IMG/VR virus record: IMGVR_UViG_3300029841_000319
Span: 1 to 10,544 of that record
DNA from: a virus
Lineage: Duplodnaviria; Heunggongvirae; Uroviricota; Caudoviricetes
Reading direction: 5' to 3' (one strand)
DNA: 10,544 bases
Shown here piece after piece: positions 6,001 to 9,000 of this stretch (positions are counted from its first letter, which is position 1; every line of letters starts with the position of its first letter). The position numbers are program-made.

Positions 6001-9000
6001 CATAACTTGTTACCTCGGTCTGTTACTGTTGAGGTAATAATTATGCTTATTTGGTTTGGTGTCAATAGATATGAGTTAAAAAAATTACCCGTAAGGTAAT
6101 CTATCTGGCAATAAAAAAGCCGCCAGAAGGCGGCTTACTTACTGAAAAGTATGATTTTATTGTTTGTTTTTTTCGTTCTGGTTGATGACAAATTCAATGT
6201 AACTTTCGATCTTTGCTTTCTCGGTTTCGGGTAACAATGCGTAGCGCGAGCGGTCATAGTTGATGGTCGCAGGGTCGTGCGGGTGAATCAGTAATTCATA
6301 GCCGTGACGCCCGAATGCGGATGCAACATTCTCCAGGGTGGAAATGGAAACGCTGACCTCATTGTTTAACAGGCGACTGATTGTCACCTGGGCGACGCCG
6401 GATGCGCGGTGAAGTTTTCCCTGCGTTGAAAGGTCGCGGCTTTCGCTCATCCAGCGTTCCAGGTTGTGAGCCGCCAGCTGACCAATGTCGCTTGGGCCGA
6501 CAGGCTGAAAACCTTCCTGAGAAAGCGAGCGATCGATATCAAGCCAGTTACGGGGTTTATTGGCGGCAGCTTCAATTTTTCGTGCAACCTGGTCGCCGAT
6601 AACCTTCTTGCCAAGAGCCCAGCGGTTTACCAGATTTGCCTGAGTTCCAAGTTTTTCTGCCATCCGCGTCTGAACACCATTGAATTCACGGTCGATCAAG
6701 TCGTTGAGATTTTGCCTGCGGACGTCCTGGATACTTTTCATTTTCTGGAAAATCGCCTCATATATGAATCAGTAGATGATTCAATTTAAAGCAATATTAC
6801 CCAACAGGTAAATGCACCTCATAGGTAACTATCCTTGATTTTTGTTACCTTATGGGTGAATATTTATTATCTGAAATAAATATCAGGCAATAGCTATGAG
6901 CGATAACGGACATTTCGATTTCAAAAAGCACTGGCTTGCACTTACTCCGGATGAGCGTGAAGCCTTCGCACAGGAAGCCGGAACGACGAGTCACTATATC
7001 CAGACTCACTTAACAGGTAAGCGCAAAATGCCAGGTAAGGTATTGATGAATGGGCTTTTTAAAGCCTGTAAAACAAGACAATGGCTGCGCTCAAAAGCAG
7101 AACTGGCATACTTCTTCTACTCATGATATCCAGCTACAACCCTCTGTAGACCGCCACCCGGCGGTCTTTTCATATCTATTCGTACCTCAAAGGTAATAAA
7201 AAACCAAATCTGGTTGATCTTTTTTTTGTGTCAGCACAAAATGACCGTAATCCCAATACTAATAACAGGGCTTACCATGGAAATCATTACACGTATTGAT
7301 GCCGCAAAGCGCGGACTTAAACGCTACTACACCGGAAAACCATGTAAGCATGGACATGACAGTGAACGCTGGGTTTACAACGGACACTGTGTTGAGTGCA
7401 CCATGGAATCAAACCGTCGCATCAGGGCAGAGATTAAGCAGATCATGATTAATTCCTCCCCACAACACTCAAGCTGATAGCGGAGATTAATCATGAGCAG
7501 ACATGCAACAGATTGGGCCTGGGAGACAGATCCAGGTAGCTCATCATTAAAGCTCATACTGCTCTCGATGGCTGACAGAGCCGATGAATATAACCTCTGC
7601 TACCCCAGCATAGAACGCCTCGTTAAAGACACTTGCCTGAATAAAAAAACCGTGCAGGCCGGGCTTATATCGCTCATGAAAATGGGGCTTATTTCAGATA
7701 CCGGAGAGAGAAAGGGAGTGACAAAAAGAGTGCGGGTTTTCTCTCTTAATATAACCAAAAACGGGAACATTAAAGGCAACCTAGAAGGGTGTAATGAACC
7801 CGAAAACGGTAATGTTCCCGAAAACGGGAATATACCCAAAAACGGGATGTTGAATGATCCCAAAAACGGGATGTTGAATGATCCCAAAAACGGGATCCAG
7901 AACCAGTCATATAACCAGTCATTTAACCAAGAGAGGGAGAGCAGGACAAAAACCGGGGATTCTGTGCCTCATGACCCCGGCGCAAACAACGCCGTGATGA
8001 ATAACTTTGTTCCTCCTGGTGGGCCAGGGCAATTAGGCAAATTTGTCATGCATGAACAATGGCAGCCATCAGATGACTTTCTTCGGAAAAGCTCATTGCA
8101 GGGAATCTACCTGGACAGTCTGCCAACGGCACAGGAACTTGCAGAGTTCAGAATTTACTGGATGGCTGAGGGTAAGGCATACCATCAGGCACAGTGGGAG
8201 CAGAAGCTGGCAAGGCGCATCCAGTTCTGTAGACAGAAATCAGGTGAAGTCAGAAAGAGCCTTGACTGGCATAACACTGACTGGATAGATGAGGTGTGGG
8301 ATGAAATCAACTCCAGAACTTCTTAATGAGTACGATCGCTTTCGTGGTGGGCATGACCACTCGACGGCGGTTGCTTCTGCTGACGATGAAAGGGCAAAGA
8401 AGGAGCAGGTTGCAAGAATTTTCAACGAAATGTTTGTCCAGTTACAGGCTGCATTTCCAGGCAGCATCGCTGCTATCAGCGAGCAAGGAAAGCTAAACGA
8501 ATTTCGAAAACAATGGATGCTTGCGTTTCTGGAGAATGGGATCACAACAATGGAACAGGTTAACGCTGGTATGCGCCACGCCCGCGCCAGTGAATCTCCG
8601 TTCTGGCCGTCGCCAGGGCAATTTATCAAGTGGTGTAAAGACAGCAAGATGGTTCTTGGCGTCACCATTGACGATGTGATGGCGGAGTTTCACCGGTACA
8701 GCAAGGAAAAAAGTTTATATCCTGGTGGTCCCGAAAGATTCCCGTGGCGACATCCGGTTATGTACTGGGTCGTATGTGATACCCGCCGTGCAATGTATCA
8801 GCGCCAGCTTAGCGAGATTGAGGTTGAGAAACACGCGCGCAGGCTGCTCGATGATTGGGCGAAAAAGGTGGCTTCCGGACAGCAGATACCCGATCCGGTG
8901 ATCAGCATACAGGCAAAGCCAGAACCCATGAGTACACCTCCGGACACAGGGAGAGACGTTTACCATCCACCAGGGCGAAGTTTCGGGTGCATGCCTAACG

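Follow-up and report, generated by a model that had tools for sequence, protein, structure and literature searches.

A repeated 17-bp dyad as the likely operator of the repressor Rep in the early region of a phiV10-like Escherichia coli prophage

The closest described counterparts of the regulatory region analyzed here are those of phage epsilon15 and of SPC32H, an epsilon15-like Salmonella phage. In the GenBank record of epsilon15 (AY150271/NC_004775), seven protein_bind features carry the label "repressor" and the note "lysogeny", and the annotated sites, when read out, are perfect copies of the dyad ATTACC-N5-GGTAAT. Three of them are located at the PL promoter, where two lie 62 bp apart around a TTGACA -35 box and a third perfect site follows 76 bp further on, and dispersed sites are found ahead of late genes. 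The record leaves the OR and the proximal sites unannotated, and the repressor-site annotation itself may be only a prediction. Kropinski et al. 2007 is said to be the reference for the epsilon15 repressor gp38 and its annotated operators. For SPC32H, the Rep-Ant switch (PDB 5D4Z, 5D50) was reportedly described in Kim & Ryu 2013 and Kim et al. 2016. A passage of PMC9638917 citing Kim 2016 presents SPC32H Rep as a tetramer on palindromic sites, in which the pairs of DNA-binding domains come from different dimers. A passage of PMC9986798 ascribes to the C-terminal domain a p53-like tetramerization fold, the 'TetDloop', linked to DNA looping, and describes the repression mechanism as one that "has not been extensively characterized".

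The DNA analyzed here (the window) is the whole stretch of 10,544 nucleotides in IMG/VR record IMGVR_UViG_3300029841_000319. Between positions 5500 and 7500 it shares 97-98% identity with phiV10 and its close relatives (97.5% with phiV10 alone), a group of temperate, epsilon15-like E. coli podoviruses in the genus Uetakevirus; the stretch as a whole represents the early region of an E. coli prophage of the phiV10 type (Uetakevirus, epsilon15-like). At least 80% of it is carried as prophage by 87 of 5426 complete E. coli genomes. The gene layout, which was assigned after the phiV10 annotation, comprises the integrase gene (1-1251), a leftward early operon (methylase, PerC-like, AlpA-like, recT, recE, and two small genes), the repressor gene rep on the minus strand (6157-6741; 194 aa), and, on the plus strand, a gene for a 76-aa Cro-like protein (6896-7126) as the first gene of PR. 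Rightward of the latter follow a 66-aa gene, the DnaT-like (7493-8326) and lambda-P-like replication genes, and a DUF1064 gene (ATG at 9201), with further genes onwards. The same gene order is found in epsilon15, and the dyads of the window recur in an identical arrangement in the genome of SPC32H. Pfam searches with the 76-aa protein and the neighboring small proteins gave zero matches.

Rep is a full-length homolog of SPC32H Rep (PDB 5D50 chain A, E=4e-42, residues 1-190), and by this homology it consists of an N-terminal DNA-binding domain, a middle dimerization domain with an HTH fold, and a C-terminal domain for tetramerization and Ant binding. The middle and C-terminal domains have diverged between the two proteins, and the overall identity to epsilon15 gp38 is 42%. 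Conservation is highest in the N-terminal 70 residues, and the sequence ANLVNRW of the N-terminal domain is common to all dyad-carrying phages. Pfam matched Rep to HTH families only and revealed no S24 (LexA-like) autocleavage peptidase domain; the C-terminus aligns with the tetramerization domain of SPC32H Rep. Moreover, Rep shares 100% identity with phiV10 p40 and with ORF21 of phage ZX5, whose function as a repressor has been demonstrated: overexpression of ORF21 abolished free phage, lowered the endolysin and holin transcripts by more than 99.9%, and blocked lytic growth; operators were not mapped in that study (PMC9782041). A previous inspection of the window, based on its sequence alone (the sequence-only reading), had taken the specificity of the repressor to be possibly undescribed. 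This view is not supported, because the same dyad is present in the public annotation of epsilon15 seven times, at orthologous positions; Rep, in addition, is a member of the SPC32H Rep family, which has been studied structurally.

The dyad has the consensus ATTACC-N5-GGTAAT (17 bp) with the core ACC-N5-GGT. Six copies with at most two mismatches start at positions 6022, 6084, 6796, 7181, 9120, and 9182 of the window, and two weaker ones are located at 6813-6829 (four mismatches) and 6844-6860 (three mismatches). All eight are intergenic, in agreement with the sequence-only reading, whose count of eight copies holds for the first six at this threshold and for the two weak ones by virtue of positional conservation: on their own the latter are not significant, and their credibility derives solely from better copies at the same positions in relatives. 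The whole window contains 12 matches with up to three mismatches, compared to 3.4 +/- 1.8 expected, a number reached in none of 200 shuffles. The other matches with three mismatches (n = 5; 418, 2024, 4100, 5499, and 8886) fall within coding DNA and look like chance occurrences. A comparison of coding and intergenic density on the genome-wide scale was made for the complete phiV10 genome, which has 15 dyads with at most two mismatches (1.07 expected). Eleven of these 15 lie in the non-coding DNA that makes up 6.5% of the genome (binomial p = 9e-11). That the dyad might have arisen by chance or from the base composition of AT-rich promoter DNA, or might serve a host factor and have no phage-repressor role, is conceivable inasmuch as intergenic phage DNA is AT-rich and two of the eight copies are weak. 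However, random sequence with the composition of phiV10 non-coding DNA yields 0.23 sites as opposed to the 11 observed, and this enrichment together with the restriction to non-coding DNA indicates that the dyad is neither a compositional accident nor spread through coding sequence.

Phylogenetic footprinting also speaks against a chance or host-factor origin. For this purpose, the four regulatory regions were aligned across seven phages with repressor identities of 42-100%. In the alignment, both half-sites (core ACC...GGT) and the -35 boxes are invariant, as are parts of the -10 boxes, whereas the 5-bp spacers and the flanks vary. Five further enterobacterial prophages, located through their repressor (in Superficieibacter, Ca. 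Erwinia dacicola, Klebsiella, and two in Citrobacter), share the layout, and the search of related prophages for the dyad found it in all 11 enterobacterial relatives examined. At the loci scanned in two Pseudomonas relatives that share the N-terminal domain only, no dyads were detected; in PseuP_224 (Pseudomonas), NYISRC replaces ANLVNRW. The co-occurrence of the dyad with ANLVNRW, and its absence where the helix differs, ties the motif to Rep and not to another factor. The chance or host-factor explanation, which is effectively refuted by the phiV10 enrichment and the footprinting, thus has next to no probability left. As an aside, the annotated cI of PseuP_224 (2995-3732) combines a Rep-like N-terminal domain with a longer, unrelated C-terminal part, and ATTACC dyads are absent nearby; this looks like domain shuffling of a DNA-binding module between repressor types.

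Judged from these sequence comparisons, it is almost certain that the repressor of this prophage has the repeated 17-bp dyad as its operator. Enrichment, intergenic restriction, footprinting, and co-occurrence with the DNA-binding domain of Rep all bear out the earlier interpretation of the dyads as an operator family with two members bracketing PL. The operators of lambda, 434, and P22 and the LexA box were ruled out as the identity of the dyad, as already noted from the sequence alone, since the sequences differ; by direct reading, none of the eight window dyads contains the LexA box CTGT-N8-ACAG. A full-text literature search for the half-site strings in a phage repressor or operator context returned unrelated papers only.

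At PL, both sites were found as described in the sequence-only reading when their positions were re-read. The proximal operator (6022-6038; GTTACTGTTGAGGTAAT) has two mismatches and overlaps the last bases of the -10 box and the start region, and the distal operator (6084-6100; ATTACCCGTAAGGTAAT) is perfect, centred at about -62, and located just downstream of the rep terminator. Their centres, at 6030 and 6092, are 62 bp apart. This placement, with the proximal site on the -10 box and start and the distal site upstream of a perfect TTGACA -35 box, matches the promoter called by a consensus promoter scanner, which found a single strong minus-strand promoter between the two dyads (6037-6065; TTGACA at 6065-6060, a 17-bp spacer, and AATTAT at 6042-6037). 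PL leads into the early-left operon, consisting of a 50-aa gene (start at 6003) followed by recE/recT and others. The intrinsic terminator after the repressor gene (6117-6136, minus strand) is also annotated in phiV10. The half-site columns and the -35 box of PL are invariant in the seven phages, and the distal operator is orthologous to the annotated repressor site 32616-32632 of epsilon15. A full third operator is situated 74-76 bp beyond the proximal one in epsilon15, SPC32H, and the Klebsiella phages, whereas the window has a half-site only at the place of the third epsilon15 site. This extra half-site, GTTACC at 6008-6013 (within 6008-6016), coincides in part with the ribosome-binding site from which the 50-aa gene is translated, and it forms an inverted repeat of 13 pairs with the region of the proximal operator.

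In the OR region, an OR3-like operator (6796-6812; ATTACCCAACAGGTAAA) is located nearest to the rep gene. It is abutted by a weak OR2-like operator (6813-6829; TGCACCTCATAGGTAAC), in which ACC..GGTAA is invariant and which is replaced by a better copy in epsilon15 and SPC32H, and a weak OR1-like operator (6844-6860; GTTACCTTATGGGTGAA) lies inside the PR spacer. The spacings between these sites are 17 and 31 bp in the window, compared to 17 and 30 bp in epsilon15. The PR region (6835-6870, plus strand) contains either an invariant TTGATT at 6835-6840 as the -35 box or the promoter TTGTTA-17-TATTAT called by the scanner. PR drives the gene of the Cro-like protein, which is followed by a terminator (7148-7167, plus strand) that is also annotated in phiV10. 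In analogy to CI and Cro of lambda, the dyads could be mainly targets of this 76-aa protein or be shared equally between it and Rep. Its position as the first PR gene would fit such a role, as would a weak alignment to the HTH of the Rep N-terminal domain (27% identity over 41 aa, E=0.001 in a single comparison). On the other hand, the protein matches no Pfam family, its putative recognition helix is unlike ANLVNRW, the dyads track the N-terminal domain of Rep across the relatives, and the ZX5 overexpression data suggest full repression of PL by Rep alone. Shared use would, furthermore, supplement and not replace binding by Rep. A leading or equal role of the Cro-like protein is improbable in our estimation.

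A distal operator at 7181-7197 (CGTACCTCAAAGGTAAT) precedes the candidate promoter of the replication operon (7214-7257, plus strand; TTGATC at 7214-7219, a 17-bp spacer, and CAAAAT at 7237-7242). Its -35 and -10 boxes are invariant in the seven phages, and at the proximal position only a left half-site is present (ATGACC, 7241-7246). The distal operator of a third rightward promoter (9120-9136; ATTACCTGGTGGGTAAT) is perfect, lies just after a terminator (stem 9089-9100), and is orthologous to the repressor site annotated at 35906-35922 in epsilon15, the fourth annotated site of that phage. It is followed by a candidate promoter for the DUF1064 gene (9155-9183, plus strand; TTGATT at 9155-9160, a 17-bp spacer, and TTTAAT), in which CTATTGA is invariant and which would leave hardly any leader before the ATG at 9201. 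The consensus promoter scanner made no call for the candidate promoters at 7214 and 9155. The proximal operator of the third promoter (9182-9198; ATTACCTCAGAGGTAAA) overlaps the -10 box, the predicted start region, and the Shine-Dalgarno sequence, and is located 62 bp from the site at 9120. Its right half (GAGGTAAA) is at the same time the Shine-Dalgarno sequence of the next gene, a feature conserved in seven of seven phages.

A common module can be recognized at three promoters of the window, namely PL and those of the replication and DUF1064 operons. In each, an intrinsic terminator is followed by a distal dyad, an A/T tract, a -35 box (TTGAnn) and, after a 17-bp spacer, a -10 box; a proximal dyad lies over the -10 box and the start site. 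The spacing of the two dyads is 62 bp at the third promoter in 11 of 11 enterobacterial relatives examined, and also at PL in these relatives with the exception of two Klebsiella loci (63 bp). This distance corresponds to 5.9 helical turns and has been kept although the intervening sequence diverged. In the proposed mechanism, one 17-bp dyad would be recognized per pair of Rep N-terminal domains. At PL, the proximal operator would cover the end of the -10 box and the start site and so exclude RNA polymerase, and the distal operator, whose centre near -62 is 62 bp (5.9 turns) away on the same helix face, would probably be occupied by the other pair of DNA-binding domains from the Rep tetramer bound at the proximal site, clamping the -35 box in a small loop. 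The pair at 9120/9182 would repeat this module, and so would the site at 7181, there with a degenerate proximal partner; PR and the DNA upstream of rep would be covered by the three OR sites (6796, 6813, and 6844). Each early operon would thereby possess its own repressor-controlled promoter, with terminators between neighbors.

The more specific proposal that the 62-bp pair bracketing the -35 box is the DNA counterpart of the Rep 'trans' tetramer, and that such a micro-loop is reused at three or more promoters so that the repressor controls a terminator-partitioned genome without antitermination, is put forward as a tentative one. The 62-bp distance is partly forced by promoter geometry and hence is not independent proof of looping, and the abutting OR2 and OR3 sites, 17 bp or 1.6 turns apart, are at odds with a same-face model. 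Alternatively, Rep could bind its operators independently and without looping, the distal sites acting as roadblocks behind the terminators upstream of them or as occluders of A/T-rich, UP-like elements adjacent to the -35 box. This would agree with the finding that every distal site directly follows a terminator and that a conserved A/T tract separates each of them from the -35 box, with the lack of a full proximal partner in the module at 7181, and with the 63 bp tolerated in the Klebsiella loci. It accounts less readily for the exact 62 bp in nearly all relatives despite diverged intervening sequence, and the passages of PMC9638917 on Rep as an active tetramer with two pairs of DNA-binding domains, and of PMC9986798 on a tetramerization fold linked to looping, also speak against it. 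We consider independent binding possible but rather unlikely. Taken as a whole, the explanation that the dyads are Rep operators, with a distal/proximal clamp and Ant-driven induction, is in all likelihood the best one.

With respect to induction, Ant, the antirepressor of SPC32H, has a close homolog in the phiV10 protein p24 (5D50 chain E, E=3e-46). Ahead of p24, at 20820-20839 of the phiV10 genome, lies a good LexA box (AACTGTATAAATACACAGTA), which was the only one found and is located outside the window. By homology, derepression would thus proceed via LexA-controlled Ant instead of RecA-mediated cleavage, with the presence of Ant in this particular prophage inferred from phiV10, where the gene is located outside the region corresponding to the window. 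Judged by eye, the Ant homolog of phiV10 (20546-20839) is about 85-90% identical to that of SPC32H; the Rep targets of these two Ants are about 42% identical and most divergent in the middle and C-terminal domains.

Every defining feature of the epsilon15/SPC32H system that could be tested was found, namely the Rep homolog, the annotated dyad, orthologous positions and spacing, and, in phiV10, LexA-controlled Ant. On the grounds of these sequence features, the window is assigned to the epsilon15/SPC32H-type Rep-operator immunity system (Uetakevirus), and in function it is a classical phage immunity region. The lambda-like framing of the sequence-only reading was partly apt. As in lambda CI control, the repressor and cro-like genes diverge around a three-site OR, both PL and PR are covered, and there is a potential for cooperative or long-range action. 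In contrast to lambda CI, however, Rep has no S24 peptidase domain that could be cleaved with the help of RecA, and the operator sequence differs. Whereas lambda has tandem OL sites, the window has the 62-bp pair bracketing the -35 box, and instead of being confined to OL and OR, operators are dispersed over many promoters, with sites at 7181 and 9120/9182 in the window and also in the late regions of phiV10. Terminators separate the operons here, and an N/Q antitermination cascade is not evident. A lambda-type CI system was rejected because the cleavage domain is absent, the operator geometry is different, and the operators are dispersed.

Control of several operons directly by one repressor through many scattered operators or stoperators is known from C1 of phage P1 and gp71 of mycobacteriophage L5, and would apply here as well. 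The sites of these two repressors are asymmetric and the proteins are unrelated as far as known, whereas here the dyad is symmetric and would be bound by a tetramer. Additional dyads of the phiV10 genome, at 86-120, 3251, 20496, 20876, 24691, and 26869, precede late, tail-fiber, lysis, and integrase genes, for which reason most phiV10 operons may be directly repressed by Rep. Two of them, at 86 and 104, fall within the annotated coding sequence of the small terminase (41-715), whose start may be misannotated in phiV10; epsilon15 has the equivalent site annotated upstream of that gene.

The records examined contain neither the sites of the phiV10 type themselves nor those at OR and in the proximal position, nor do they describe the conserved pairing; the phiV10 records annotate zero operators. 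As a discovery the dyad itself carries little weight, but the analysis supplies operators and promoters missing from the annotation of phiV10-type prophages, a common group in E. coli. PhiV10 is used as a reporter phage for O157:H7. The four repressor-controlled promoter modules and the 62-bp pairing provide a testable model, on the DNA side, for the structurally unusual Rep tetramer. The prospect that the loop-clamp model proves correct and has also not been worked out before is a modest one.

Two further observations concern coding regions of the window. The recT-like (302 aa) and recE-like (273 aa) genes are separate, overlapping ORFs on the minus strand (3853-4761 and 4731-5552, respectively), whereas the phiV10 record has a single 'recET fusion' CDS; this may reflect a frameshift, or a sequencing or annotation difference, in one of the two. 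Inside the DnaT-like gene, a tandem array of 3.1 copies of 18 bp (7791-7845) is adjoined by a second array of 2.6 copies of 24 bp with 100% identity (7835-7896). By analogy with lambda O, these iteron-like arrays (7791-7896) are probably a replication origin located within the initiator gene.
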